NCBI GenBank assembly: GCA_040879965.1
Contig: JBBDJI010000007.1
Location: 29,393-93,392, forward strand
Direction of reading: 5' to 3'
Length of the DNA: 64,000 nt
DNA from: Candidatus Babeliales bacterium
GTDB taxonomy: Bacteria; Babelota; Babeliae; Babelales; JACPOV01
How positions within the stretch are numbered: position 1 is the first letter of the stretch; every line of letters begins with the position of its first letter. The notes under the pieces were generated by a model. It saw nothing but the letters and a program-made list of their open reading frames with translations. It ran no database searches and was not told the origin of the DNA. This document shows positions 3,460 to 52,055 of this stretch, piece after piece. The position numbers and the translations under genes are program-made.

Positions 3460-4629
3460 ATGCTCAGCATATGTTTTTATTTTCAAGTGCATCAGCCATA
3501 TCGTTTACGACGATTTCAAGTTTTTGATGTACGAAATACCAATAATTATTTTGATGAAGAAAAAAATAAAGCAATACTCAATAAAGTAGCGGGTAAATGT
3601 TACCTACCAACAAATCAATTGTTATTAGATTTATGTAAGCACTATCCCGAATTTAAAATTAGTTTTAGTTTTTCAGGTGTTTTATTAGATCAATTACAAG
3701 AATATGCGCCGCAGGTTTTAGAAAGTTTTCAAAAATTGGTTAATACCGGGCAAGTGGAAATATTAGCAGAAACTTATTATCATTCATTATCTTTATTATA
3801 TTCTAAGCAAGAATTCCAGGAACAAATAAAAAAACAACAGCAAAAAATCAAATCATTATTTGATATAAAATCAACTATATTACGCAATACCGAGTTAATT
3901 TATAATAATGAATTAGCATGTATTGCCGAGCAGATGGGTTTTAAAGGAGTATTAATTGAAGGTGCCGATAAAATTTTAGGTTGGCGCTCGCCCAATTTTT
4001 TATACAAAGCAATCGATACAGAAATGCCATTGCTACTTAAAAACTATCGGCTTTCAGATGATATTGCTTTTCGTTTTTCTGACCGCGGTTGGCAAGAGCA
4101 TCCTTTAATGGTTGAAAAGTATGCGCAATGGATTAATGCAACGCACGGCAATGGTAATACCATTAATTTATTTATGGATTACGAAACATTTGGCGAGCAT
4201 CAATGGGAAGATTCTGGCATTTTCAATTTTTTTAGACTCTTGCCAGAAGAAATATTAAAGCATTCTGATAATGAATTTGTATGGCCTTCAGAGTTGGTAC
4301 AAAAATATCAGCCAGTTGATGCGCTCGACATTCCTGATTATGTTTCTTGGGCCGATATCGAGCGTGATGTGAGTGCATGGCTTGGTAATGATTTGCAACA
4401 ATCAGCGATTACGCAGCTTTATGAGCTTGAAAATATTATTAAGCAAAAGGGTGATGAGAATTTACTTAATAATTGGCGTAAGCTGCAAACCTCTGATCAT
4501 TTTTATTATATGTGCACCAAATGGTTTAATGATGGTGATGTACACAAATATTTTAATCCTTATGATAGTCCGTATGAAGGCTTTATCTATTATATGAATG
4601 TGCTTAAAGATCTAAAATCTCGCTTGTAA
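3460..4629 (+). CDS. Glycoside hydrolase family 57 protein (alpha-amylase/branching-enzyme-like catalytic domain)
   Basis: N-terminal FQVHQPYR (GH57 region I HQP motif), a DYETFGEHQWE acid/base-like region, 389 aa. Begins 20 nt after the GT4 gene, with a GGGG RBS. Confidence 0.55.
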   Translation: MLSICFYFQVHQPYRLRRFQVFDVRNTNNYFDEEKNKAILNKVAGKCYLPTNQLLLDLCKHYPEFKISFSFSGVLLDQLQEYAPQVLESFQKLVNTGQVEILAETYYHSLSLLYSKQEFQEQIKKQQQKIKSLFDIKSTILRNTELIYNNELACIAEQMGFKGVLIEGADKILGWRSPNFLYKAIDTEMPLLLKNYRLSDDIAFRFSDRGWQEHPLMVEKYAQWINATHGNGNTINLFMDYETFGEHQWEDSGIFNFFRLLPEEILKHSDNEFVWPSELVQKYQPVDALDIPDYVSWADIERDVSAWLGNDLQQSAITQLYELENIIKQKGDENLLNNWRKLQTSDHFYYMCTKWFNDGDVHKYFNPYDSPYEGFIYYMNVLKDLKSRL

Positions 4630-4707
4630 AAGTAAAATATAAAATCAAATTTATTGCCACTCGATTTTTTCAATTTGTATATTATATAAGATTGGGAGGG
4701 AGAGGCT

Positions 4708-5295
4708 ATGAAAAAATTTTGTATTTATTTTTATTTATTCAATATTCTTTTTGTACAAACTATTTTTCCACTTAAAATTGATCGAGTAATTTTATCTACT
4801 AATGATAATCCGCTTTATATTCAATTCTGGCCGCTTGCAGCGCGTGCATGGCAAGAGATAGTTGGCGTGCGACCAACACTTGCATTAATTGGCAATAATG
4901 AAATTCCTATTGATGAGCAATACGGTGATGTAATTCGATTTACACCAATTGAAGGAGTGCCAACATCTTTGTATGCGCAATGTGTTCGTTTGCTTTTGCC
5001 TTGCTTATTTCCTGCAGATGGCTGTATACTTGCCGATATCGATTTGATTCCATTACAGAAAAAATTTTTCATCGATAAAGTAACCAAAATATCTGATGAT
5101 CGATTTGTTATTTACAAAAGTAGAGCATATTGGTTTTATAAGCCAAGAATTTATATGTGTTATAATGCGGCAAAAGGATCAACTTTTCAAGATATTTTTG
5201 GAGTGACTTCTTATGAAGAAATTCCAGAAATGATAAAGCAATGGGCACAATTAAATATTGGTTGGGCAACCGATGAAATTATGGGGCTGTCCTAG
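4708..5295 (+). CDS. Hypothetical GT-A-like (DXD motif) nucleotide-sugar transferase-like protein. The native C-terminus is replaced by IS insertion.
   Basis: The ORF has a hydrophobic N-terminus and an ILADIDLIPL DXD-like motif. The stop codon TAG lies inside the left inverted repeat of the IS1595-family element. Joining the flanks predicts the original end ...TDEIIVLLFKKVVEV*. Confidence 0.4.
   Translation: MKKFCIYFYLFNILFVQTIFPLKIDRVILSTNDNPLYIQFWPLAARAWQEIVGVRPTLALIGNNEIPIDEQYGDVIRFTPIEGVPTSLYAQCVRLLLPCLFPADGCILADIDLIPLQKKFFIDKVTKISDDRFVIYKSRAYWFYKPRIYMCYNAAKGSTFQDIFGVTSYEEIPEMIKQWAQLNIGWATDEIMGLS
5283..5295. repeat. IS1595-family left terminal inverted repeat GGGGCTGTCCTAG
   Basis: Exact reverse complement is present at 6548-6560. 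Confidence 0.8.
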
Positions 5296-5490
5296 ATAAC
5301 TAAAAAGGTTATACTAGGAAACATGAATATTCGACGTTCAAAATTAAGTAAAAATAAAAGAAGAAAATTATTAGAACATTTTGTTGCAGGAACAACAGCG
5401 AGAACGGCGGCTTCTATTATTGGTGTAAATAAAAATACTGCACAATTATTTTTTCATAAATTACGAGAAATTATAGGTAAAGAACAACTC

Positions 5491-6038
5491 GGCTGCAAGC
5501 AACCGAGCTTTCAAACTACTTTGAGTTGCTTTCCCCATATTTCTTGAGCGTCCATTTTCTTTAGTTGATTTCTAACATATTTCCGAATTACTTCATCATT
5601 CGCGTTACCAATCGTTTCTACAAAAAAACTTTGAGTCCAAAGTTTTCCACCCCAAAAATATTTTTTCCTTATTTCGGGATATAATTTGAAAAAATTTCTT
5701 GCAGATATGCTTTTTATAATCTGCATAATTTTTGATGGACATTGCTTTGGCTCAGATTTTACTATCATATGTATATGATCCGTTGGCACTTCTAATTCTA
5801 CAATCTCAATATTGTAATCATATCCTATTTTGTATATTATTTCCTTCAAATTTGATCTGTATGGTTCTCTAAAAATTTTATGTCTGTATTTTGGAATCCA
5901 TACAAAATGATACATTATACGAAATACGTGATGCGAATTCCTAGTTAGTTCCCTAGCCGGATCCTTCATAATGAGCTTTCGCTCATTATAACGCTATCCA
6001 GCTAGGGAGCAAGCTCCCTAGATTTCCGCTACGCGGTT
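5491..6038 (-). mobile_element. IS200/IS605-family element (IS200 subgroup, tnpA only) inserted inside the IS1595 transposase gene
   Basis: Contains an intact 152-aa Y1/HUH transposase gene on the minus strand. GCAAGC-apex subterminal hairpins lie at both ends (CTCGG-CTGCAAGCAA-CCGAG 5495-5514; AATGAGC-TTTCG-GCTCATT 5976-5993; CTAGGGA-GCAAGC-TCCCTAG 6003-6022). Boundaries are inferred from restoring the IS1595 transposase reading frame (…GKEQL|KKQKSGIVFEG…) and are approximate. Confidence 0.7.
5511..5969 (-). CDS. tnpA: IS200/IS605 family transposase TnpA (Y1 HUH transposase)
   Basis: 152 aa. YHFVWIPKYR N-terminus, HUH motif DHIHMIV, and a C-terminal catalytic-Tyr helix RKYVRNQ. Confidence 0.85.
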   Translation of the reverse strand: MKDPARELTRNSHHVFRIMYHFVWIPKYRHKIFREPYRSNLKEIIYKIGYDYNIEIVELEVPTDHIHMIVKSEPKQCPSKIMQIIKSISARNFFKLYPEIRKKYFWGGKLWTQSFFVETIGNANDEVIRKYVRNQLKKMDAQEIWGKQLKVV

Positions 6039-6547
6039 AAAAAACAAAAATCAGGAATTGTTTTTGAAGGAGAAGTTGAAGCGGATGAAAGCTATTTTGG
6101 AGGAAAAAGAAAAGGAAAACGAGGAAGAGGTTCAGCGGGAAAAGTCCCTGTTTTTGGCCTTTTAAAGCGTGGAGGAAAAGTTTTTGCTGAAATAATACCA
6201 GATGCAAAAAGTAAGACTTTGATTCCTATAATCAAAGAAAAAGTGAGACCCGACTCTATCGTATATACTGACTCATTACCCAGTTACAATGCTCTTGATG
6301 TTTCTGAATTTAAACATCTTCGAATAAATCATAGTAAATTATTTGCTGAAAATCGTAACCATATCAATGGAATTGAAAATTTTTGGAATCAAGCAAAACG
6401 ACACATGCGAAAGTTCAATGGTATACCAAAAAAAAATTTTTATTTATTCTTAAAGGAGTGTGAATGGCGGTTCAATTTTTCATCACCAAAAAAACAAATT
6501 GATATGCTGACTCAGTGGATAAAATCAATAAAATAATTACTTAAAAC

Positions 6548-6560: not shown

Positions 6561-6805
6561 AAAATTATTGTATTGTTATTTAAAAAAGTGGTCGAAGTGT
6601 AAAACGCATATCAAAAAACTTGGATATACTAAATATAAGCATCGACGCATAGATCGAGATAACCAATTAAAATACAAAAAAAAGAAATTATTAAAGCAGT
6701 ATTATGTTGAAATGAATTGTCCAAAGCCATATAATATGCACAAAAATCAAATTGATCCTATTTTTCATTTGGCGTTATTTGCAGCTATACAACGAAGAAA
6801 ATAAG

Positions 6806-6846
6806 TAAAGGAAGGCTTTGCAAACAAGGCTTTCCTTTACTTACTA
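6806..6846. terminator. Putative hairpin terminator for the minus-strand gene 6859-7434
   Basis: 9-bp stem AGTAAAGGA/TCCTTTACT, followed on the minus strand by a T-rich tract. Confidence 0.35.
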
Positions 6847-6858
6847 AGATTAATAATC

Positions 6859-7434
6859 TTAACGTTTTTCCCAACTCATAATTTTTTTGAAAAACCTTAA
6901 TTTTTTCCTAGTATGCCTATCCTTAACTTGCAATTTTGGATAATCAGTTGTAGTTTGACGTTCTTTATCAAAAATATGTATATCATTGGTTCCAAAAATA
7001 AAAGCTGGTTTTATAGAGGGGTAGCTTGTGCGTCCACTTTCAACATCAGAAAAATCTGTATAGCGAGGGTTATAGATCCATTTTGACCAATTGATTTCTT
7101 GTTCAGATAGGTCTTGAAATGTTTTTTCCAAATTTATTAATTTGCCAGTTTCAGAATTATATTTAAAGCAAGGCACATTGCAGGTTGATCTATATAAATA
7201 ATGTAATAAGTATAGCTCTTCTTCTATACATTTTAAGCCATACACTTCAGAGATTAAAAAAACATTATCTTTGCTGGTAATTATTTGATTTATATTATTA
7301 ATAAGCTTACCATTTCTAGGTGTTGTTTTTATCTCTATTTTTTTAGGTATTTCCATAGGAAAAATAGGGAAAGTTATGCTAGTTAAGAATAATAATTTTA
7401 TAAAAGTTAGTTTGCGCATATTTAATAAAATCAC
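6859..7434 (-). CDS. Hypothetical secreted protein
   Basis: 191-aa ORF with a hydrophobic N-terminal signal-like segment (MRKLTFIKLLFLTSITFPIFP). No recognisable domain. Confidence 0.45.
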   Translation of the reverse strand: MILLNMRKLTFIKLLFLTSITFPIFPMEIPKKIEIKTTPRNGKLINNINQIITSKDNVFLISEVYGLKCIEEELYLLHYLYRSTCNVPCFKYNSETGKLINLEKTFQDLSEQEINWSKWIYNPRYTDFSDVESGRTSYPSIKPAFIFGTNDIHIFDKERQTTTDYPKLQVKDRHTRKKLRFFKKIMSWEKR

Positions 7435-7866
7435 TTAATTCCTTTAAGTGGTAAAATAGTTTAAATAAATTTCTATATGATAATAATATGACTATTGAAC
7501 CATGTCAAATATGATTTTTAACTGAATAAATTAAGAATTGTTTTTAAAGTATCAAGTATCGATTTTATTATAGTATTCATAAGAGAATAATGATTGTAAT
7601 TTAAAAGAAGCTGTTTTTTGTATTTTAATTACTCAGTCAATGTTAATAAAAAAACCGGATCATTCAAATTAGATTTGAGAGTGTATAACAATCAATTAAT
7701 ATAACCGAAGAAATACAAGAATGATTTGGTTAGAGTAAAAATTTATAATAAAAGATTGATAGCTTGCATTATATTATTGACGATTTTTATTTATTGTTTG
7801 ATTGTCTTTTTTTTGAGATTATAAAAAATTGCTATTTAGTTTTGTAAAAAATGTTTTTTTTAATAC

Positions 7867-7896
7867 TTGACATTAATTTGATGAATCTGTTACCTT
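7867..7896 (+). promoter_or_regulatory. Sigma70-like promoter (TTGACA-N17/18-TACCTT) aimed at the structured element at 7903
   Basis: -35 TTGACA at 7867-7872 and a -10-like TTACCT/TACCTT at 7890-7896. The -10 is weak. Confidence 0.35.
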
Positions 7897-7902
7897 GAAA
7901 TT

Positions 7903-7998
7903 AAGAGATGGGAGGGTAGTTGAAAGCTTGCTCTCTCATGTGCGCAAGTACATGCGAGGGATATAGGGTTAAACCTATAAGCTTCCATCTCGTTTTTA
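7903..7998 (+). ncRNA. Candidate small structured RNA (~95 nt, unclassified) with its own promoter and an intrinsic terminator-like 3' end
   Basis: GC-rich island in a 600-bp AT-rich intergenic region. A 10-bp closing helix pairs GAGATGGGAG (7905-7914) with CTTCCATCTC (7982-7991). Inside is a 13-bp hairpin capped by a GCAA (GNRA) tetraloop (CTCTCTCATGTGC-GCAA-GTACATGCGAGGG). A second TATAGG/CCTATA hairpin follows, then GTTTTTAT. No plus-strand CDS lies downstream. Confidence 0.4.
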
Positions 7999-8038
7999 TA
8001 GATTAGGGAAGTTTTCTATAAAATTCTTTTTTATTACT

Positions 8039-9025
8039 CTATCTTTGAGTAAAATATTTCCATCCAAACCAGCCCGCGTAAATTGCTAATCCAGTTAAGC
8101 CAATTCCTACACTAATTTTATAGAAATTTTTTATAGAAAATGATTTATTTGATTGGGTTTTAGAAATGTTTTCAATACTTGATTTTTCATTAGGATGGTT
8201 TACATGGTTTAATAAAGCTTCTTCTTCTCCTTCTGAATCATTTAGTTCATTTTTTTTATTGTTTGCCGTAAGATATTCTTTTTTTTCTTCTTCAGTTTCT
8301 GATAACACAGAGGAGCTGAAGCTTTCACTTTCTGTAGAAGACATATCAGATGTATTAAGGCTATATTCGCTATCACTTTTTTTTGTGATTGAATCTATCT
8401 TATTATCTTCTTCACTAGAACCTATATCCAAATCGGTACTGCTTTCACTCTCAGTTGTTTTATCTTTTTCGTCGTCATTGCTACTAGAAAGTTCGATTGA
8501 AGAATAATCATTTTTATTTGGTATTACCATCTGGTGTGTTTTTTGTAGAAATTTTTCTCCTGGAGTTATTCGGTTGCTTTTGTTTTGTATAGTAAACTTT
8601 TTTACTTTATTTCTATCCGTTGTCCCTAGAATGAGTGCGCCAAGCTTTTCTCCATAACCGCCTCGCTCGTAAAAGTTGACATATACCCAATTGCCTTGCC
8701 GAATCTTTATCCAATCTGCTGTTGATAGAGAAGCAAGTTGTCCTTGATGAATAAAATTATCTTTATCCGATTCATATTGAAAATAAGAAGTTGTAGCTAA
8801 AAAATATGAATTTGGGGATTGAGAATCAAGCATCTCTGATAATGTTTTTACTTCATAATTATCAAAATTGATTCTTATATTCTGATATTTTTTTCCGCTA
8901 AATATACGTATTTTTTCATTATTAATATTGTTATTCTTATCTAAAATTGAATTGCATAATTCCATTGATAATGTTTGATTAAATATACTGATTAATATAA
9001 TAAAGGTTATTATCTTATTTTTCAT
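8039..9025 (-). CDS. Hypothetical secreted/tail-anchored protein with an acidic Ser/Glu/Asp-rich low-complexity region
   Basis: 328 aa. N-terminal signal peptide, a ~150-aa globular region, ~100 aa of S/E/D-rich disorder, and a C-terminal TM helix (ISVGIGLTGLAIYAGWFGW). Confidence 0.5.
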   Translation of the reverse strand: MKNKIITFIILISIFNQTLSMELCNSILDKNNNINNEKIRIFSGKKYQNIRINFDNYEVKTLSEMLDSQSPNSYFLATTSYFQYESDKDNFIHQGQLASLSTADWIKIRQGNWVYVNFYERGGYGEKLGALILGTTDRNKVKKFTIQNKSNRITPGEKFLQKTHQMVIPNKNDYSSIELSSSNDDEKDKTTESESSTDLDIGSSEEDNKIDSITKKSDSEYSLNTSDMSSTESESFSSSVLSETEEEKKEYLTANNKKNELNDSEGEEEALLNHVNHPNEKSSIENISKTQSNKSFSIKNFYKISVGIGLTGLAIYAGWFGWKYFTQR

Positions 9026-9140
9026 ATTGATACCTTAATAAAATACTAGAAGAAAATAGAATTTAATTTATGATTTATTTTAAGATTTAAAAATAATAAA
9101 ATCAATTTTACTATTAAAAACTAACTTCCAAAGAAAATAC

Positions 9141-10493
9141 TTATAAAATATGCTCACCAACCGCATAACCAATTAAAGAAAGAGCCAAAGTAGGAAGTTC
9201 TGGTGGAATTGGCAGCGGCATTAAATTGAAAAGAACAAAGCCTAAAACTCCTGCAATAACACTGCAAATGCCAGCTTCTCGTGATACTTCTTTTTTAAAG
9301 TAGGCAAAAAGTAATGGGACTAATAAGCAACTGACCGGCACGCCATAACTGGTTACCAAAATCTTTATAATATCTGGCGGCATAAAATAAGAAAGTCCTA
9401 AAATAGTTAATCCAGAAGCAATAATCGTTGTTTTTGATTCAACCACCGGCGATAAGCCTAAAAAAGATAAATTTAAATCTTGGCAAATATTGCCGCTAAT
9501 TGCGCACAATAATGCATCGGCAGTGGAAGCAATGGCTGCCAAAATACCAACCGCTACTAAAATGACGATAAAATCGTTCGTTAAATGAGCGATCATTGGA
9601 ATAAGTGGGCTTGCGTTTGCAGCAACCGAAATACCAATTAATTGCGATTGTATGCCAAAATAAATTGGTATGATACCAAATATCAAAATAAAAGCGGTTG
9701 TCGCAAATGCAGCAAATGTGGCAACTTGTTTTGTACGAGCGGCAAAAAAAACTTGAGCAAGATCTTGTTCAAATAAAGCAAATAAGGCCGGCATTAATAA
9801 TGTGCGGAGCATAATAATTATTGATGGTGGATGTTGTGCAAAATGCTGTTGCATCATTTTTAAATTCGCTAGATCAAAAAATGAGGGATTTTTAAAAATA
9901 CTGTAAAAAAATAATGGAACAAATACAGCAATAATGAATAAAACTTGAAAAACATCAGTAAGTACAACTGCTTTTAAGCCACCGATCATCGTGTAAATAA
10001 TTAGAAACAACCAAAAAGTTAAAAAGAAAATTTCATTTTTAATGCCAAGTCCAAGTAATAATGTTTTTGATGCAACAATATTACCAATTAATATACCACC
10101 TAAAGTAATAGTAACAATAAATGAAGCGATACGGCGTAGCATGGGTGAGTTATATTTTGTTTCAAAAATTTCAGTGGTAGTAACAATATTAAGTGCGCGT
10201 AAACGGCTTGCAATACCACAACCTAACAAAATAAGGCCGAGTGTGATGCCAACTGTAAAAATAAGTGCATAAAATCCAAGATGATACGCTTGTTGAGAAG
10301 TTCCTAATAATAAGCCGGCGCCTAACTGTGTTGCAATTAAAGTGACAGTTGCTTTTAAACGGCCTAAATTACGACCGGCCAAAAAGTAATCTTTTTTATC
10401 TTTAATTTGTCGCGAAGGAATGATGGCTAACAGAATGTAAATAATACCAAAACCGAATAGTACACTAAAAAATAATAGTTCATTCATATTCAC
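9141..10493 (-). CDS. Sodium:solute symporter (SSF) family transporter (PutP/PanF-like)
   Basis: 450 aa and polytopic. Has an SSF-type N-terminus (FLAGRNLG...ATQLGAGLLLG). Confidence 0.65.
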   Translation of the reverse strand: MNMNELLFFSVLFGFGIIYILLAIIPSRQIKDKKDYFLAGRNLGRLKATVTLIATQLGAGLLLGTSQQAYHLGFYALIFTVGITLGLILLGCGIASRLRALNIVTTTEIFETKYNSPMLRRIASFIVTITLGGILIGNIVASKTLLLGLGIKNEIFFLTFWLFLIIYTMIGGLKAVVLTDVFQVLFIIAVFVPLFFYSIFKNPSFFDLANLKMMQQHFAQHPPSIIIMLRTLLMPALFALFEQDLAQVFFAARTKQVATFAAFATTAFILIFGIIPIYFGIQSQLIGISVAANASPLIPMIAHLTNDFIVILVAVGILAAIASTADALLCAISGNICQDLNLSFLGLSPVVESKTTIIASGLTILGLSYFMPPDIIKILVTSYGVPVSCLLVPLLFAYFKKEVSREAGICSVIAGVLGFVLFNLMPLPIPPELPTLALSLIGYAVGEHIL

Positions 10494-28155: not shown

Positions 28156-28758
28156 ATGGTTTCTATGGGTTATTTTCAAATTGTATCAATTTTTATTCTT
28201 TTGTGTTCAATTGGGCTCCATGGCCGAAGTAGTAATGTAATAGAGCATATTCGTGCTACTGAGCATTATTTTAAAAAACAGTTAGGTAAATATAAACGTG
28301 AAATTAGTGCTAATATTGGGTTAGTGCTTTCAAAGAATCAAAAACATATTGCTCATGAGGGCGTTCGGGTTGATCAGCTTAATATGAGACATATTGCTTT
28401 GGGTAATTTGAATAAAAAACAATTAAAATTAACTGGTTTGCATACTGATCAATTTTGCCCAGAAAAAATTAAAAAAGTTATTATTCCGCCCAATGAAAAA
28501 GGTATTTGGTTGGGTCAATGGAAAGATGAAAGATCTAATTTAGCTAAAATTTCAAGTTTTTTCCCTTCATTATGGTCTGCATCAGTAATTGTTGATAACA
28601 TTATTGAATCATTAGCTCACATTAAAGGGATAAAATTAGTTAGAAATGGTGTACGCATTTTAGGTAAAACAAGCAATGACATTAATATAGAATTGTTTAT
28701 TAAGCCTGATGGTACTATTCAAACTGCGTTTCCAAGAATTAATCCCAAAAAAATTTAG
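28156..28758 (+). CDS. Hypothetical protein with an N-terminal signal/anchor
   Basis: 200 aa. No recognisable motif. Lies 6 nt after tkt. Confidence 0.4.
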   Translation: MVSMGYFQIVSIFILLCSIGLHGRSSNVIEHIRATEHYFKKQLGKYKREISANIGLVLSKNQKHIAHEGVRVDQLNMRHIALGNLNKKQLKLTGLHTDQFCPEKIKKVIIPPNEKGIWLGQWKDERSNLAKISSFFPSLWSASVIVDNIIESLAHIKGIKLVRNGVRILGKTSNDINIELFIKPDGTIQTAFPRINPKKI

Positions 28759-30464: not shown

Positions 30465-31358
30465 TTATCGACTTTTTAAAGATAGCGAATATGGTTTTTC
30501 TTGAATAGTTTTTTTATTTTGTCTTTTCTCCAATTGATCAAGAATAGTTGGTAATAAAGATAAAAATTTCTGAAGCATAAACTCGATATGAAAAATATTA
30601 CGCCCATCAATTTTAATTTGCGCTTGAATAAGTCGTTTAGTTGGCGCAAAAATTCGTTCAGAAAACCAAGGAATATTTTTTTGTTTATCATAAGCATCTT
30701 GCATGTCATGAATATCTTTAGAATAAAGACCCTGAGGGTCTAAAACTTGTATGGTATCAAAAGCAGAATATAGAGAAATAATTTGCTGAAATATTGGATC
30801 TTCTAAATATTGCTTAGTGCGTTCTTGCACAGGGCATGCAAGCAAAATAAGTTCGCAAATAGTTAAATCATTTTTATTGTTAATTTTAGAAAGAGTTAAT
30901 GCAACATTTCCTCCGTGGCTATGCGCAATAATTCGGATGAAAGGTTCAAAACCATATTTTTTTTTATAGTTTGTTATTAATTTTTTCAAATCCGCATAAA
31001 GATCTTCAGCTGCTTTTTTGCGTGCCTGAAAACTTAATTTGCCTGACCAACCAAAAAGATAGAAAGTTTTTAGCGGGAATCGTTTAGGGTCTGCCTTTGC
31101 GAGTATTTGTGCAATTTGATTATGATGATAGCTTTCATCAAGTTCAGTTGCCAAATTCAAACCAGGCTTACAATAAAAAAATTTAGGCAAAAAATAATCC
31201 GGAAAAAAGAGTGTACCATGTATCCATACGGTAACAGGTAAAGCTTGTTGCTTTTTTATCTGTTTTTTTTGAATATCGGAATATATGTAAATACCTGCTA
31301 TAAATAGTAGAGCAAATAGTAATAAGAGGCAATACAACCAATACATTGTTCTTTCCAT
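30465..31358 (-). CDS. Alpha/beta-hydrolase (lipase/esterase-like, DUF676/PGAP1-like) with an N-terminal TM anchor
   Basis: 297 aa. WIHGT oxyanion-like motif and an AHSHGG nucleophile elbow. Confidence 0.5.
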   Translation of the reverse strand: MERTMYWLYCLLLLFALLFIAGIYIYSDIQKKQIKKQQALPVTVWIHGTLFFPDYFLPKFFYCKPGLNLATELDESYHHNQIAQILAKADPKRFPLKTFYLFGWSGKLSFQARKKAAEDLYADLKKLITNYKKKYGFEPFIRIIAHSHGGNVALTLSKINNKNDLTICELILLACPVQERTKQYLEDPIFQQIISLYSAFDTIQVLDPQGLYSKDIHDMQDAYDKQKNIPWFSERIFAPTKRLIQAQIKIDGRNIFHIEFMLQKFLSLLPTILDQLEKRQNKKTIQEKPYSLSLKSR

Positions 31359-31522: not shown

Positions 31523-32476
31523 GTGATGGAAATAATAATAGGAATAATAATTTTTACGGTATTAAGTATATCGCTATTACTGTTCAAATCTATTTATTTG
31601 GTTACGCAAGCAGAAGTTGTGGTTATTGAACGTTTTGGTAAATATAATCGTACACTTGTCCCTGGATTTAATTTAGTTGTGCCATTTGTGGATAACCCTT
31701 GCCGTGTTATTTGGACATATCTTATCTCAGATGATAACGGAAAACATTATATCCGTTACTCAAAAGTTATTGAGAAAATAGATTTGCGAGAATCGGTATA
31801 TGATTTTCCTAAGCAGAATGTGATTACACGTGATAATGTAACCATGGAAATTAATGCGTTGCTTTATTATCAAATTACTGATCCAAAAGCAGCCGTTTAT
31901 GAAGTATCTAATTTGCCTGAAGCAATTGAAAAGCTAACACAAACGACATTACGTAATGTTATCGGTTCAATGGATTTGGATGAAAGTCTTGTTTCTCGTG
32001 ATAGTATTAATGAAAAATTACGTGTGATTTTAGATGAGGCAACCGATAAATGGGGCGTAAAAGTTAATCGTGTAGAATTACAAGAAGTTAAGCCACCAGC
32101 GGACATCCGTCAAGCTATGGAAAAGCAGATGCGCGCCGAGCGTGATCGACGTGCCATAATTTTAGCGGCAGAAGGAAGTAAGCGCGCTGCAATTTTAGAA
32201 GCTGAAGGCATGCAAGAATCTAGTGTTTTGCGAGCTAAAGGTGAAGCGGAAGCACGCATAGTTATTGCGCAAGCGGAAACAAAGGCGGTTGAAATAATTA
32301 AAGCAATAATGCCAGAGCAAGATCCATTACCATATTTAATTGCGATGCAATATATTAAAGCATTACCAGAAATGGCTAAAGGTAAGAATGATAAACTCAT
32401 TGTTGTGCCATATGAGGCTACTTCATTAATTGGATCTTTATCTTCGATTAAAACGATATTTGATAAAATACAATAG
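31523..32476 (+). CDS. SPFH/band-7 domain protein (stomatin/prohibitin-like)
   Basis: 317 aa. N-terminal TM, the SPFH core, and a C-terminal coiled-coil with an AEG/EAE repeat pattern. Confidence 0.7.
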   Translation: MMEIIIGIIIFTVLSISLLLFKSIYLVTQAEVVVIERFGKYNRTLVPGFNLVVPFVDNPCRVIWTYLISDDNGKHYIRYSKVIEKIDLRESVYDFPKQNVITRDNVTMEINALLYYQITDPKAAVYEVSNLPEAIEKLTQTTLRNVIGSMDLDESLVSRDSINEKLRVILDEATDKWGVKVNRVELQEVKPPADIRQAMEKQMRAERDRRAIILAAEGSKRAAILEAEGMQESSVLRAKGEAEARIVIAQAETKAVEIIKAIMPEQDPLPYLIAMQYIKALPEMAKGKNDKLIVVPYEATSLIGSLSSIKTIFDKIQ

Positions 32477-32505
32477 AAAAAGGCGCCAATTATGGTGCCT
32501 TTTTC
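32476..32505. terminator. Bidirectional rho-independent terminator between the SPFH and USP-like genes
   Basis: AAAAA-GGCGCCA-ATTA-TGGTGCC-TTTTT (7-bp stem with one G.U, A-run and T-run flanks), located between convergent genes. Confidence 0.6.
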
Positions 32506-32517
32506 TAAATTTGGCTA

Positions 32518-33681
32518 TTATTTTAAAAGATTTGTAAGTGATCTTAAACTGCCAGTAAGTTTTTCTAACTCATTTGATAACGCTTTGAATGCTATCTGTT
32601 CGGCTTCTTTGCGCTTGCGTTCTTTTTCTAGTTTTTGCCATAATTCATATTCTGATCTTGTTATCGTTGTTTTTTGGTAAATAAAAAGATAGCCTGTTCC
32701 TTCGGTGGCTGATCCAGTAATGTCATTTGGTATATTTTCTCTAGAAATGTTTACCGGAGTTATTACGCTATCATTACACTTATACCATTGTTCATTAGTT
32801 TTTACATAGGCCCAATAATGTCCTCCTTTCGCGGTTCCTCCTTGTATAATTACTCCGATAAGTTCATAGTGTTTGTTTTCTGGATCTTTTGGTCTAGTAA
32901 ACAGAAATTCTGATATATTAATTTTTAAAGGGATATCAATTTTATGAGTTAATTTTTGTGTTTGTGTAGAAGAAATATATTGATATCTTTTTAAGGTAAT
33001 CTGTAAAATTTCTGGTGAATTGAGTAGTTTGAATTGTTTAGTACAATCAAGTCTGTTTTTGTTTGTAAAAGTATCACGGTAGGGGTCTTGAGGATCAGAG
33101 AATTTCTCTTTTTTAAAAAAACTTTCAAGACAAGCCATAAGAGAGGTTAAGGGAATTTCGTCATCGATTACTTCTACTTTTATTGATAAATCTGATTCAG
33201 GAGGAAGTCCTTTGGTTGAAGCTGAAAAGCCTTCAATTGCAGGGCACTCAATAATTGGTTTCAGATAAAGTTTAAATAATACTCTAATCGATCTTTGTAG
33301 CGCAGTATTTGCCAGAAGATCATTTAAAAGATAAAAGAAAAATTCAGTTGCATCTTCTTGAGCACCACACTTAAATCCTGGAATTTTTTCTGGTGCTTCC
33401 TTATCCAATTCGCCTAAAACGGTGTCACACGAAAAAATATGTGGTCTATTTTCTTTTTCAAATTCTTTTATCAATTCTGTGTAAAGATAACTCAGTGATC
33501 TGGTACTTGATGAATAAGGATTCGGATTTGCTGTTAAAATGTTTGTAAGAGGGTTAATATTATAAAGAGCTTGAATTGAAGCATTTAAAAAGCAAGTATT
33601 GCCACAATTTGCTAAACCAGGAGGCTGTGGTTTTAATTGAATAAAGCTAATTATAAAAATAATAAATAATATTTTTTTCAT
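32518..33681 (-). CDS. Ubiquitin-specific protease (USP/UBP, peptidase C19)-like protein with an N-terminal hydrophobic signal/anchor. A eukaryotic-type deubiquitinase and candidate secreted effector.
   Basis: 387 aa. Canonical Cys box GLANCGNTCFLNASIQALYN at residues ~22-41 and His box GGHYWAYVK...WYKCNDSVITPV near the C-terminus. Confidence 0.8.
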   Translation of the reverse strand: MKKILFIIFIISFIQLKPQPPGLANCGNTCFLNASIQALYNINPLTNILTANPNPYSSSTRSLSYLYTELIKEFEKENRPHIFSCDTVLGELDKEAPEKIPGFKCGAQEDATEFFFYLLNDLLANTALQRSIRVLFKLYLKPIIECPAIEGFSASTKGLPPESDLSIKVEVIDDEIPLTSLMACLESFFKKEKFSDPQDPYRDTFTNKNRLDCTKQFKLLNSPEILQITLKRYQYISSTQTQKLTHKIDIPLKINISEFLFTRPKDPENKHYELIGVIIQGGTAKGGHYWAYVKTNEQWYKCNDSVITPVNISRENIPNDITGSATEGTGYLFIYQKTTITRSEYELWQKLEKERKRKEAEQIAFKALSNELEKLTGSLRSLTNLLK

Positions 33682-33908
33682 TGTACTATTTCCTTTTTTT
33701 TATTTCATCTGTTCTTTTCCAAGCAAAAGCATATAAAAAATAAATCTTTGAAAGCAATTATTGTGATGTCTCTGTTTTATTTCTTTGTATATTTAATCAA
33801 GAAAGTTGTTAATATTTTAAATAAAAAGAATTTTGGCAGAGATTAAAAAGCGTAATTTATCGAAAAAGACTCAGTTTAACTATGAGAAGAAAAATTTGAC
33901 TATTTTTT

Positions 33909-33962
33909 TGGAGGCTGCCTTAATTGAATGGAGGAAAATATGGAGGTTTCTAGAACTGGAGG
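33909..33962 (+). repeat. Four direct TGGAGG repeats (33909, 33929, 33941, 33957) bracketed by the inverted repeat GGCTGCCTTAA / TTAAAGCAGCC
   Basis: Read directly from the sequence. GC-rich patch ~230 bp upstream of the USP-like gene start. Confidence 0.5.
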
Positions 33963-33992
33963 TTCTTAGAAGTTTAAAGCAGCCCCCCTTCT

Positions 33993-34008
33993 TCCTAGCA
34001 AGCTAGGA
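33993..34008. repeat. GCAAGC-apex hairpin TCCTAG-CAAG-CTAGGA resembling the IS200/IS605 subterminal hairpins at 5491-6038
   Basis: Palindrome TCCTAGCAAGCTAGGA. Compare CTAGGGAGCAAGCTCCCTAG at 6003-6022. Confidence 0.4.
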
Positions 34009-34064
34009 TCTATATCTAAGATACCATAAAAGTTTCAAATTGCAAATATTTCCTCCTGTCAAAA

Positions 34065-34564: not shown

Positions 34565-36637
34565 TTATTCGTATAATTCTTTTCGAGTTAATTGAATTGC
34601 ATTGTTCATTAATTTAATCACGTCTTTAGTTTCTAATGGCGTTGTTTCCAACGAAAAATCCCATTGTTCATTGCTCGTTTTTTGGGGTTCTTCCAATCGA
34701 GAATAGCGATTAAACCAGATACCATCATGATGCTGCCATAGGTTTTTTATTTTTGAAAAATCAGTATCTTTTTGTAGTTTTGAAAAAAGTAAAACCGGCA
34801 TGTGATAAAGATAGATTTGATTTTTTTTAAGCCATTGATAATGGGCATAAAAATTATTATTAAAAGTGGCTAAAATAAGCGGTTCTTGTGCCGAGCTAAG
34901 CCCAGCCATGATGCCTTTATACAACCATGAGTGGGGTAGTGTAATATTATAAGCAGCAATAAGTGCAGTAGGTAGTTTGTTATTAATATGATTTTTAATT
35001 TTTTTGCCGATATTTTTTGCTTCTTGTTTTAAAACTCCAAAATAATTTTGCAATTGATTATGCTCAATTAAATACTTAACCCGATCGTTAACTTTGTTAA
35101 GTTTAGCCAAGTTTGGATTATTGTCTGCTATATAAAATTTTTGCCAAGCAAGATCAGAAAAATCCATTAAATTAGTATATTGGCCAGTTTGATTTTGCGC
35201 ATGATACATTTCAAAGTCTAAGAAAATGCCAGCAAGCGGCAGATTATTACTGATGTTATGTTGCCATTCTTCGTAAAAACGATCAAAAACTTCAATAACC
35301 TCTTTTTGCCAGTAATTTTCAAAATCTAATGGACTTGGGACTTTAGTATAATTTTTACCATACATATCTTTTGTGCTTTCTACAGGAGCCTTGGTGCCAA
35401 AATTACCTGAGATTTCCATGCCAATAAAAACATGAGGAAGTGGTAATTTTAATTCAATCGATTTTTGTTTGAGTGCAGCAGTAAATCGAAAAATACTTTC
35501 AAGAAATTCTTTTTTTTGTTCAGAGGTTTTAAAAGCATTATCGCTGAAATATATTTCCGGGTTAAGTTGTAGCCAGAGCATGTTTAATCCCGATTTTAAC
35601 AATCTTTCAGCTACTTCATTCTCTTTGCCATTAAATGGGTCTATTGCCATCCAACCGCATGCAATACCTTCTTTTTCAATCCAATAATATTTTGGGAATA
35701 CTGTTTGTTTTCGTTCTTGTTGAGCACGTTTTTTTTCTGCCAGACTGAATTCTGGAGTCAATTTTTTTGGGAATACTGTTTTATTTTTATGTGATCCAGT
35801 AAGAGTATGAAATATTGCAAAAACTTCTTGCAAACCAGAAAGTAATGCTAGTCTTAATTGAAAATCTACCGGGTTAAGAGTAAAGTTTTCGGCAATATCG
35901 GCGAAGGTTAGGTATTGTGCGCTCGTAATAATAAAATCATTACCAGTAGCAAGATTTTTAGTATGAAAACCAAGTGGATATAAAGGTGAAATTTTTGGAT
36001 ATGCTTCAAAAATACTACGATCTGGCAATGGTTTAATTATATTGTTTTTAACTTTTTTATTGTGAAGAATATTGAGCAGTGTGTTTTTATTTTCTCGTTC
36101 CATTAATAAGGCTGTATCATAGCGATAACTTTTGCTTGCACCAGAATAAAGTAGGTGTGTGAGTAATTCTTTGGTAGATTGATCTAAAGGAGAAGTACTA
36201 AATACGCCCATTTTCTTTAAAATTTTCTGTACATACGAAAGTCCAATAGCAACATGATTGCCAACTGATGGTAATGCAATCATAATAACTTTATTCTTTT
36301 GATTTTTGATTATTTCAAAAACTTGATATATCTGTTTTAACAATGGACTTCTTATTTTATGTTTTTGTGCAAGTTCTCGTGATGTAGCACTTAAAAAAGC
36401 CGGATCAAGAATTAAAAGTATTGCTTGAGCATGTTCAATATCGTCTTTTGATACTGCAGTGATATGACGAAAATCGGGCAAAAAACCTACTGACTGCGCT
36501 AAAACATGAGTATTGCGATAAACATAAGGATGATTAAGTGCAGAATCAATAATGAGAAGTTTTTCATCCGCAGATAAGCAATGATAATTAAATAAAGAGC
36601 CAATAAAGCTAATAACTAATATTTTTGAAAAATTCAT
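34565..36637 (-). CDS. Large hypothetical secreted protein (possible TIM-barrel glycoside-hydrolase-like fold)
   Basis: 690 aa with a signal peptide. Motifs such as GIFLDFEMYH and WLQLNPE are suggestive but not diagnostic. Confidence 0.4.
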   Translation of the reverse strand: MNFSKILVISFIGSLFNYHCLSADEKLLIIDSALNHPYVYRNTHVLAQSVGFLPDFRHITAVSKDDIEHAQAILLILDPAFLSATSRELAQKHKIRSPLLKQIYQVFEIIKNQKNKVIMIALPSVGNHVAIGLSYVQKILKKMGVFSTSPLDQSTKELLTHLLYSGASKSYRYDTALLMERENKNTLLNILHNKKVKNNIIKPLPDRSIFEAYPKISPLYPLGFHTKNLATGNDFIITSAQYLTFADIAENFTLNPVDFQLRLALLSGLQEVFAIFHTLTGSHKNKTVFPKKLTPEFSLAEKKRAQQERKQTVFPKYYWIEKEGIACGWMAIDPFNGKENEVAERLLKSGLNMLWLQLNPEIYFSDNAFKTSEQKKEFLESIFRFTAALKQKSIELKLPLPHVFIGMEISGNFGTKAPVESTKDMYGKNYTKVPSPLDFENYWQKEVIEVFDRFYEEWQHNISNNLPLAGIFLDFEMYHAQNQTGQYTNLMDFSDLAWQKFYIADNNPNLAKLNKVNDRVKYLIEHNQLQNYFGVLKQEAKNIGKKIKNHINNKLPTALIAAYNITLPHSWLYKGIMAGLSSAQEPLILATFNNNFYAHYQWLKKNQIYLYHMPVLLFSKLQKDTDFSKIKNLWQHHDGIWFNRYSRLEEPQKTSNEQWDFSLETTPLETKDVIKLMNNAIQLTRKELYE

Positions 36638-50396: not shown

Positions 50397-52055
50397 TTAA
50401 TATTTAAAAAAATATGTGTTCAAGAGGTTTTTTGAATATGAAGAATAAGAAAATAAGAAAGCCTTAATAGTTTTATTTAAAAATAATTTAGAAAATAATG
50501 AATAAGCAAAATGAAAACTAATAAGACCCAATATTATTTTAAAACTTTTAAGTCTTGTTTTTTCTTTTTTGATTTCTAACTTTTTTTGCTCAATTTTTTG
50601 ATTTACAATTGGAATATGTTTTTTAAATATATTTTCCAGAGGTTCAATATCAAAGTGTGTGTCATAAGCTGAACTATGTTTAAAAAGCATCCAGGGGGTA
50701 TTAATTATCATTGATAATAATTCATGGATATATTCATTTACATTATTTATTTTTGAAAGAGTTGTTATTTTGATTAATTTATTTTCATAAGAAACAATAG
50801 CTTCTTCAGCTAAAGAAACAAAATGTGGGTCGATTAGTTGCATAAATTCTTTTTCGATTGGTGTTAAATCGATAATGGAGGATTCATTTTCATTATATGG
50901 ATAATATTGATGTAAAGTTAAAATAGCTTCTGCTGTCGTTTTCATATAGTTTTTGATAATAGAAAAATCTTCAGTAGGTATTAAAGAATTAGAATAAGAA
51001 TTAATATTATTTAATATTGCTAATTTATCTATTTCATTTAATTGAGCGCCATATTGCAACAGTAAAAAAAATATTTTCCAGTCATGGTGTTTTTTATTTA
51101 TTTTTTTTAGTGCATATAAATATGCTGTTTTATCTTGGGAATCTAATATGTTGAGTGATGCACCTTTCTTTAATAAATTTTCAGCTAATTTATAATCGCC
51201 TTTCTCCACTGCTATATGTAAAAGAGTTGATCCATAAAGGTTTTTTTTGTTTATATTTACTAAATTTTTCGTCACTAAGCACTTAAACAAAGAAAAATCA
51301 TTAAGCATTGCTAGCTGATCAGGGGTAATAATGTTGTACTTTAATAATAGATCATACTCATTACCGGTATTATTAGGTTTTTTTGTTAATATACCAATCT
51401 GTTGTATAGACGGTTTAGCCCCTTTTGCAAGTAGCTCATTTAAAAATTTATTATTTTTTGTAGTTAAAGCGATTTCTATTAATTTTTTATTATTTATAAT
51501 CCATTTTGGGTCTACTAAAGCTAAAATTTTAGTAAATCTATTTATATCTTCATTTAATATTAAATGATGCAAAGCTGTTGTTGGATTTATTCTATGATCT
51601 GAAAATAATGTTTTAATTAGTTGCCAATTAAAGCAATAGCAATCTATAGCCGTATTGATATTGGCTTTGCAATACTCATTTAAAATATTTGGGTAGGTAG
51701 TTATTAATGCCCTGAGTTCATAAATTTTTGTATGATGTGTTTTATATAAACGATAGCAAAGTAAATCATCTAAAAAACTACTTATAAAAAAATATTCTTT
51801 TTCTGTCAGTGATTGGGAAATTAAAGATTCTATTATCTTAAATTCAATTTCTACAGGAAGTTTTATGTTTTTATATTGTTTTTTTTCATCGATTAATAAA
51901 TTCTGAGGTTGTTTTTTAGAAACTTTTTGTTGCAAAGCTTTTTTGTAATTATCTAAACCCGAAGAATGCGATAATGACCTAACTAAGACTTTTTGTTTCA
52001 TTGAGTAAGATAATGGAAAAAAAGTGAATGAAATGAGACAAATTATTTTATGCAT
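50397..52055 (-). CDS. F-box-like plus ankyrin-repeat protein with a C-terminal hydrophobic tail (eukaryote-like candidate effector)
   Basis: 552 aa. F-box-like segment IKLPVEIEFKIIESLI near the N-terminus. Ankyrin repeats (e.g. GSTLLHIAVEKGDYKLAENLLKKGASLN, KTAYLYALKK...LLQYGAQLN). C-terminal TM. Confidence 0.6.
   Translation of the reverse strand: MHKIICLISFTFFPLSYSMKQKVLVRSLSHSSGLDNYKKALQQKVSKKQPQNLLIDEKKQYKNIKLPVEIEFKIIESLISQSLTEKEYFFISSFLDDLLCYRLYKTHHTKIYELRALITTYPNILNEYCKANINTAIDCYCFNWQLIKTLFSDHRINPTTALHHLILNEDINRFTKILALVDPKWIINNKKLIEIALTTKNNKFLNELLAKGAKPSIQQIGILTKKPNNTGNEYDLLLKYNIITPDQLAMLNDFSLFKCLVTKNLVNINKKNLYGSTLLHIAVEKGDYKLAENLLKKGASLNILDSQDKTAYLYALKKINKKHHDWKIFFLLLQYGAQLNEIDKLAILNNINSYSNSLIPTEDFSIIKNYMKTTAEAILTLHQYYPYNENESSIIDLTPIEKEFMQLIDPHFVSLAEEAIVSYENKLIKITTLSKINNVNEYIHELLSMIINTPWMLFKHSSAYDTHFDIEPLENIFKKHIPIVNQKIEQKKLEIKKEKTRLKSFKIILGLISFHFAYSLFSKLFLNKTIKAFLFSYSSYSKNLLNTYFFKY

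Follow-up and report, generated by a model that had tools for sequence, protein, structure and literature searches.

The gene on the minus strand at positions 32518-33681 of the window, the 64-kb stretch of DNA that was analysed as a whole, encodes a protein which, judged from its sequence and its predicted structure, is a canonical and catalytically competent ubiquitin-specific protease (USP; MEROPS family C19) with a thumb-palm-fingers fold. The window is plainly a piece of bacterial chromosome, belonging to Candidatus Babeliales (Dependentiae/TM6), obligate intracellular parasites of protists. Within this chromosome the USP gene is a long-standing resident, passed on vertically and evolving fast, and a member of a large lineage-specific family, not a recent import. 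The enzyme is probably exported through the Sec pathway and would act on ubiquitin conjugates of the host or on those associated with the bacterium itself.

The gene consists of a single long open reading frame (ORF) of 387 codons plus stop, and its 387-residue product is identical to an NCBI protein annotated as 'MAG: ubiquitin carboxyl-terminal hydrolase family protein [Candidatus Babeliales bacterium]' (MAG, metagenome-assembled genome) from a 129,863-bp contig. The N-terminus reads MKKILFIIFIISFIQLKPQPPGLANCGNTCFLNASIQAL, and the internal stretch GGHYWAYVKTNEQWYKCNDSVITPV, quoted in a preliminary description of this DNA, is also present. That description had proposed a eukaryotic-type USP, and the proposal is borne out by profile and sequence searches. 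In particular, the Pfam UCH profile (PF00443) is matched significantly over its full length, with an E-value of 7.7e-43 and 147.4 bits (cut-off 23.9) across profile positions 2-254 of 254, and a phmmer comparison with PDB sequences matches 99 USP chains, headed by USP2 (2.7e-20). An NCBIfam search of the same protein gave no relevant match.

Both catalytic boxes of the class occur, in the expected order. Specifically, the Cys box GLANCGNTCFLNASIQAL occupies residues 22-39 and, taken more widely, reads PGLANCGNTCFLNASIQALY (residues 20-39; 33565-33624, minus strand). The His box, GGHYWAYVK...WYKCNDSVITPV, covers residues 286-310 and, with its N-terminal flank, reads GGTAKGGHYWAYVKTNEQWYKCNDSVITPV (residues 282-310; 32752-32838, minus strand). 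In the phmmer alignment, GNTC30F is placed on the USP2 nucleophile C276 and N25 on N271, while GGH288Y pairs with H557 and N303-D304 with N574/D575. The Cys box is therefore present as described, but the nucleophile is C30 and not the first cysteine of the box, C26, which is an extra residue four positions upstream. N25, five residues before the nucleophile, is the oxyanion-hole Asn; Y289 is the aromatic gatekeeper beside the catalytic H288, and N303/D304 follow downstream. The codons of C26 (33604-33606), C30 (33592-33594), H288 (32818-32820), N303 and D304 (32770-32772) were confirmed directly on the DNA sequence. Moreover, the motif QEDATEF (residues 108-114; 33340-33360, minus strand) corresponds to the USP 'QDE box', with Q108 and D110 invariant or nearly so. 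By analogy with the USP7 and USP2 structures and with the description of the Burkholderia enzyme TssM (PMC10719079), the acidic residue of this box would hold the ubiquitin tail.

Conservation was assessed among relatives retrieved by a HMMER scan of 1.84 billion representatives, in which 14,169 proteins resembling USPs passed a threshold of E<=1e-3 and 34 a threshold of E<=1e-30. From the best 150 a strict set of 80 was retained, composed of proteins of <700 amino acids whose N-terminus carries a hydrophobic segment and whose Cys box lies in the first 60 residues. Across this set C30, N33, Q37, H288, W299 and D304 are invariant, and N25, Q108, D110, Y289, Y331 and Y335 are nearly so; N25 is kept in at least 90% of the relatives, a separate motif tally counting Asn at this site in 77 of 80. 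The invariance of the catalytic residues argues for maintained catalysis in the family.

The predicted structure leads to the same assignment. An AlphaFold2 model built from a 22-sequence alignment reaches a mean predicted local distance difference test (pLDDT) score of 90.8 and a predicted template-modelling (TM) score of 0.86. When compared with the PDB by Foldseek, its top matches are all USP catalytic domains, namely USP2, USP12, USP46, USP18, USP7, USP4 and Ubp8, at E-values of 2.8e-26 to 1e-22 and with target-normalised TM scores of 0.74-0.85; the alignments to canonical USPs span 286-302 residues. Divergent relatives lie far lower in the structural search (CYLD 19.5, USPL1 17.9, the fingerless bacterial TssM 14.8). 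The model displays the fingers-palm-thumb architecture, the fingers being formed by residues ~138-219 (33025-33270, minus strand) with DSSP strands at 138-146, 155-158, 162-164, 167-170, 201-203, 208-210 and 214-219. This subdomain has no CxxC...CxxC zinc ribbon: the four zinc-binding Cys of USP2 are not conserved, and in the alignment a single residue is left at each of the two sites, C146 and C213. A zinc ribbon in the fingers is common among USPs but not universal, USP7 being without one; since it is not a defining feature, its loss leaves C19 membership intact.

The occurrence of the ISG15-specific USP18 among the best structural matches touches on the question of the substrate. ISG15 is vertebrate-specific and, because of that, cannot be the target in protists; nevertheless, a USP fold acting mainly on NEDD8, on a protist-specific ubiquitin-like protein or on ester-linked ubiquitin attached to non-protein substrates has to be considered. 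Characterised bacterial enzymes offer precedents, as in Simkania negevensis SnUSP2 is reactive towards an ISG15 probe as well and SnUSP3 leaves chains uncleaved (PMC10643670), while TssM reacts with NEDD8 and is an esterase (PMC10719079). On the other hand, many USPs specific for ubiquitin (USP15, USP2, USP8, USP12, USP36 and USP7) match the profile about equally, at E-values from 1e-42 to 1e-33, and neither the QEDATEF box that binds the tail nor the GHY gatekeeper departs from the standard. A main activity on something other than ordinary ubiquitin conjugates is, in our judgement, improbable.

A second alternative concerns the origin of the gene. USPs are overwhelmingly eukaryotic, and giant viruses of protists encode them too; the gene might consequently not be a functional bacterial one, but a eukaryotic or giant-virus contaminant, a recently acquired island or a decaying pseudo-enzyme. 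The genomic setting, the composition and the conservation of the gene together leave this explanation effectively refuted. On both sides the USP gene is surrounded by bacterial housekeeping genes in a compact bacterial organisation: the window encodes transketolase, a GH3 protein, an SPFH protein, an EndoU-like nuclease, a CNNM/CorC transporter, RpoD, DnaG, Lgt, MnmG, a glycosyl transferase family 4 protein, an ankyrin protein, a P-type ATPase, an M50 protease, glucokinase, PGI, G6PD, 6PGD, SpoU, TGT, MurB and PheT, together with glycogen-related enzymes and an IS200 transposase. The guanine-cytosine (GC) content is ~0.32 throughout the window, and the composition of the USP gene is that of the genome, with a GC content of 0.314 and a third-position value (GC3) of 0.191 next to 0.317-0.375 and 0.196-0.252, respectively, in nine neighbours. 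The reading frame is intact, the catalytic residues are conserved across the 80 relatives, and viral and eukaryotic USPs are only 16-27% identical to the protein. In addition, profile scores are at least 328 bits within the family, compared with at most 231 bits for the best eukaryotic proteins, which are DUSP- or zf-UBP-containing USPs. The placement of the gene in a bacterium of an obligate intracellular lineage, as put forward in the preliminary description, is in agreement with these neighbours and with the identical Babeliales protein.

Synteny adds a temporal dimension to this picture. Three loci, L001-L003, were all that a contig scan with a single peptide pattern returned. In L001, from another Babeliales genome, an orthologue sits in the same slot, in the order p690 - USP - SPFH - GH3, where p690 denotes a 690-residue neighbour; the identities between window and L001 are 43% for p690 (684 amino acids in L001), 37% for the USP, 68.5% for the convergent SPFH protein and 47% for GH3, and the USP gene diverges somewhat faster than these three neighbours (37% against 43-68.5%). 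In L002, also from Babeliales, synteny is partial, as a USP of 34% identity is followed by the counterpart (45%) of the alpha/beta-hydrolase encoded at 30465-31358 of the window. Because its composition matches the genome and its synteny with L001 is conserved, the gene is considered an old resident, and recent horizontal acquisition or a genomic island is ruled out on the same grounds. The earlier suggestion that the locus is consistent with acquisition finds no support in view of the matching GC and GC3 and the retained slot in L001, and the repeat and terminators on which it leaned are uninformative in this respect. No mobile-element gene adjoins the USP gene, the sole transposase found being an IS200-like one (5511-5969) 27 kb away.

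A further locus, L004, from a Babeliales relative, is syntenic with the window at 54-63 kb (TGT 72%, MurB 57%, PheT 44%) and carries, at 6694-9293, two tandem signal-peptide USPs of 431 and 430 amino acids between a UPF0176/rhodanese gene and pheT. The syntenic site of the window (58516-58692) is an empty 177-nt spacer, and no further USP paralogue was found in the window. The tandem copies on one side and the empty spacer on the other therefore indicate that the family gains, loses or moves copies between genomes.

The strict set makes the common plan of this family visible. In all 80 proteins a Sec-type N-terminus, composed of an n-region containing K or R and an h-region of 10-15 residues, stands directly before x-P-P-G-L-x-N, and the catalytic Cys has a median position of 33. 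At the other end, the pattern L-x3-L-x2-L-x3-L-x2-L-x3-L is found within the last 45 residues of 58 of the 80 members, as compared with 14 of 52 other proteins, and follows a linker that varies from Pro-rich to Lys/Glu-rich. Within the retrieved set, a Cys at -4 of the nucleophile, as in C26-x3-C30, occurs in 37 of 87 signal-peptide USPs (43%) against 10 of 175 other USPs (6%). The window protein has all elements of the plan: the signal peptide, xPPGLxN-x-G-N-T-C, a core of ~310 residues, the variable linker and the heptad helix. Clustering by the unweighted pair group method with arithmetic mean gathers 96 of the 104 sequences that bear a signal into a single 107-member cluster; being distance-based and made with 170 unlabelled sequences, it supports one coherent cluster of signal-peptide USPs and cannot name a eukaryotic donor. 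Every named family member is a Candidatus Babeliales protein, although few of the cluster representatives carry names. Taken as a whole, the family looks large and Babeliales-specific, and looks as if it expands by tandem duplication and moves between loci.

The heptad motif was also considered as a general sorting signal and rejected as such: a hidden Markov model of the 58 tails matched USPs only among 185 ORFs of the window and L001-L003. This is a soft negative, as the tail model is weak and the window protein itself reaches only an E-value of 0.006. Among the database hits, four very long proteins, P0028 (3205 amino acids), P0046 (3989 amino acids), P0031 and P0037, align to the USP query piecewise, in 12 to 27 distinct stretches, and P0028 begins with a sequence reminiscent of mammalian USP17-like genes. 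Probably they are fused gene models over tandem USP arrays in eukaryotic assemblies; a close kinship should not be read from their high summed scores.

It is conceivable, though we regard it as unlikely, that the signal-peptide USPs of Babeliales are a distinct, lineage-wide effector class with two export adaptations, C26-x3-C30 and the heptad helix, undescribed in other deubiquitinases. C26 and C30 could form a reversible disulfide that would protect or latch the catalytic Cys in oxidising compartments, with activation by reduction in the host cytosol. The heptad helix on its flexible linker, for its part, could assemble the enzyme into oligomers or attach it to a partner on the bacterial surface or on a host membrane.

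Export is suggested by the N-terminus of the protein (residues 1-19; 33625-33681, minus strand), whose hydrophobicity and position in the family layout are those of a Sec-type signal sequence. It comprises the n-region MKK (residues 1-3), the h-region ILFIIFIISFI (residues 4-14) and the c-region QLKPQ; the hydrophobic segment noted previously is real, residues 4-14 having a mean Kyte-Doolittle value of 3.39, and C30 stands 16 residues past its end. Most relatives have canonical cleavage sites, such as AFA|Q in the L001 orthologue, VDA|L, IQA|I and MHA|L. In the window protein the putative cleavage region, LKP|Q, is without the usual small residues at -1 and -3. Signal cleavage in this protein is uncertain because P18 stands at a position that is usually Ala or Ser in the relatives, 37 of the 80 representatives having one of the two there.

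At the opposite end of the protein the model predicts a single long helix (residues 342-387; 32521-32658, minus strand; modelled as helical over 342-386 with a pLDDT of 88-97). Its first half, residues 342-364, is charged and rich in Glu, Lys and Arg. The second, residues 365-387 (32521-32589), shows the leucine heptad pattern, with L368, L372, L375, L379, L382 and L386, and no Pfam domain covers this motif. The helix is amphipathic, with polar faces, and resembles a coiled coil, not a membrane span.

These two termini are what a different arrangement would depend on, in which the USP is not released but is held at the envelope, either through a signal anchor that stays uncleaved or through the C-terminal heptad helix. 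A tethered enzyme of this kind would deubiquitinate the bacterial surface or the enclosing membrane and would act as an anti-xenophagy shield, as does TssM on ubiquitylated lipopolysaccharide (PMC10719079). The non-canonical c-region, with Pro where many relatives have Ala or Ser, is in its favour, and so is the position of a conserved heptad motif behind variable, often Pro-rich or charged linkers, a layout typical of tethers; furthermore, the Simkania USPs carry hydrophobic regions thought to attach to the membrane (PMC10643670). However, the canonical cleavage sites of most relatives mean that an N-terminal anchor is not a family feature, the hydrophobic stretch of 11-13 residues is short for a stable anchor, the C-terminal helix has a coiled-coil-like character, and no surface-anchoring motif was matched in Pfam. 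Retention at the envelope is given only a small share of our confidence.

The reading that we prefer, that of a Sec-exported USP which reaches ubiquitin conjugates, can be outlined as follows. The N-terminal Sec signal would carry the USP across the inner membrane, from where it might leave the cell by one of the routes open to this phylum, a type II secretion system (T2SS), outer-membrane vesicles or lysis, and the released enzyme would then reach host ubiquitin conjugates. There, C30, H288 and N303/D304 would cleave after the C-terminal Gly-Gly of ubiquitin or of a ubiquitin-like protein, with the QEDATEF box and the gatekeeper Y289 holding the ubiquitin tail as in other USPs. As a result, ubiquitin would be stripped from host or bacterium-associated targets, and ubiquitin-dependent defence or degradation might be blunted. 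The leucine-heptad helix on its variable linker could, speculatively, serve oligomerisation or tethering. As for the route, a T2SS belongs to the core of TM6 genomes (PMC4776705), and in the cultured relative Chromulinavorax signal peptides are carried by 44% of the coding sequences, Sec is the proposed secretion route and vesicles have been seen (PMC6561590).

Several points weigh against this reading. LKP|Q is not favoured by signal peptidase I, and the window protein may stay attached to the membrane. No secretion-system genes lie within the 64-kb window, the T2SS link coming from the literature on the phylum. A Cys protease with eight cysteines must, in addition, withstand passage through the periplasm. 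The sequence does not tell whether the substrate is ubiquitin, NEDD8, another ubiquitin-like protein or ubiquitin in ester linkage, and we know of no Dependentiae deubiquitinase that has been biochemically characterised.

Enzymes of this kind have precedents inside and outside the phylum. The nearest by taxonomy are the secreted C19 ubiquitin C-terminal hydrolases reported for Babela massiliensis (Dependentiae/TM6) by Pagnier et al. 2015 (PMC4378268), which share phylum and protease family with the window protein. They are known from genome annotation alone, and the comparison with them is by description only; for these enzymes, the ubiquitin passages of that paper mention neither the heptad motif nor the Cys at -4. 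Among experimentally studied enzymes, TssM of Burkholderia pseudomallei/mallei (PDB 8pz3) is a bacterial deubiquitinase of the USP class which is exported by the general secretory pathway and the T2SS, and not through a type III, IV or VI system, and therefore provides the example of a T2SS-exported USP-type enzyme able to act in the host cytosol (PMC10719079). TssM has a fingerless core, a 'Littlefinger' loop and an N-terminal immunoglobulin-like domain; the window protein, in contrast, has fingers and belongs to C19 but not to the fingerless TssM family.

The Simkania negevensis enzymes SnUSP1-3 (Chlamydiae), from an amoeba-associated intracellular bacterium, are experimentally active deubiquitinases (PMC10643670) and, like the window protein, possess a full USP domain in which all active-site residues and the aromatic gatekeeper are conserved. 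These proteins, from another phylum, are large, consist of several regions and contain hydrophobic segments internally, whereas the window protein is a minimal core whose signal peptide abuts the Cys box and whose sole addition is the C-terminal helix. With respect to eukaryotic USP cores (USP12/46, USP36, USP2, USP15/4/11, USP7), identity is only 21-27%; the window protein is without zinc-ribbon ligands and without DUSP, UBL and zf-UBP domains, and has, in addition, a Sec signal peptide and, ahead of GLxN, a PP specific to the family.

USPs are also carried by the Bacteroidetes symbionts Amoebophilus asiaticus and Cardinium hertigii (PMC3486910). These USPs, and those of giant viruses, are likewise found in residents of protist or arthropod cells, and the enzymes of Mimivirus-like viruses are 16-24% identical to the window protein. 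On a 23% GC contig of a 'Bacteroidetes' MAG, locus L003 encodes at 3659-6055 a protein of 798 amino acids with a lipoprotein-like N-terminus (LFNC), followed by a long low-complexity region rich in Asn, Asp and Lys and then by a C-terminal USP domain with GGHYWAYV; it probably comes from a symbiont of the Amoebophilus/Cardinium type and shares 32% identity with the window protein over a portion of the domain. None of the L003, Amoebophilus/Cardinium-type or viral USPs has the layout in which a signal peptide, a core and a heptad tail follow one another.

Dependentiae are widespread parasites of protists. USPs of this type are already known in them, both from the NCBI annotation of the present protein and from the secreted C19 enzymes of the phylum, and the ubiquitin passages of the Babela genome paper stressed manipulation of host ubiquitin as a prominent feature (PMC4378268). 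What is known of the occurrence and the working of these enzymes is unchanged by the window gene, and only the family-wide layout (signal peptide at the Cys box, enrichment of Cys at -4, heptad tail) may be an undescribed part. The window USP is a compact representative, with a ~320-residue catalytic core and no accessory domains; as a compact member of a large family, it would therefore offer a convenient entry to Sec-exported effectors that would edit host ubiquitin in this phylum.

The non-coding DNA on either side of the gene had been described as delimiting the locus by terminators, which holds for one side. At the 3' end, between the USP gene and the convergent SPFH gene (31523-32476, plus strand), a bidirectional terminator hairpin at 32474-32507 folds with -22.6 kcal/mol on the plus strand (z -5.69) and -19.9 kcal/mol on the minus strand (z -6.05), none of 200 shuffles folding as well. 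An A run and a T run border the hairpin, which a consensus terminator scanner missed. The same consensus scan gave no canonical intrinsic terminator on the 5' side of the gene.

The upstream intergenic region of 383 nt (33682-34064) contains the feature previously called a repeat array at 33909-34008. Four GGAGG motifs (33910-33971, plus strand; CCUCC on the gene strand), two of them within two copies of a 16-nt tandem unit (TRF score 48), are enclosed by a 14-nt inverted repeat at 33910-33923 / 33974-33987. The array amounts to no more than this, and the repeat is not beyond chance: its 15-nt pattern is matched twice in the window, 0.73 matches being expected, and at least two matches also arise in 14 of 100 shuffles. 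No other copy of the motif is present in the window; the minus strand of the region folds moderately better than shuffles (z -2.97) and the plus strand no better (z +0.91). A known RNA or mobile-element end was considered and dismissed, there being no Rfam match up to an E-value of 1 and no tRNA or tmRNA. The region is not conserved, as the orthologous L001 spacer is unrelated, and it is treated as unconnected to the origin of the USP gene. That L001 spacer, upstream of the orthologous USP, itself holds at 5330-5900 some 550 nt of GC-rich non-coding sequence, in which CCGTTCGTGCTGA occurs twice at a distance of ~57 nt; it has no ORF of at least 90 amino acids, and its Rfam matches are weak and sub-threshold (AaHKsRNA41, with 21.8 bits where the gathering score is 97).

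Some of the neighbouring genes deserve a brief mention. The p690 gene (34565-36637, minus strand; L001 3225-5279) encodes a 690-residue protein with a signal-like N-terminus that is conserved beside the USP in two Babeliales genomes. The neighbours p143, p690 and p306 have no Pfam or PHROG match, and p690, the only one of them searched, has no PDB sequence match. The alpha/beta-hydrolase (30465-31358, minus strand; L002 7283-8176) has an N-terminal membrane segment and an AHSHGG nucleophile elbow and matches PGAP1/Hydrolase_4 weakly; in L002 its gene is the one directly downstream of the USP, in the window it lies one gene further, past SPFH, and a role as a lipase-type effector or as an envelope enzyme is conceivable. 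Elsewhere in the window are a bacterial EndoU-nuclease-domain protein (28156-28758, plus strand; E 4.2e-09), the IS200-like Y1 transposase mentioned above (minus strand; E 3.4e-40) and an ankyrin-repeat protein of 552 amino acids (50397-52055, minus strand), which agrees with the heavy ankyrin load reported for Dependentiae. Finally, a Macro-domain gene is located near the tandem USPs of L004 (3610-4473).

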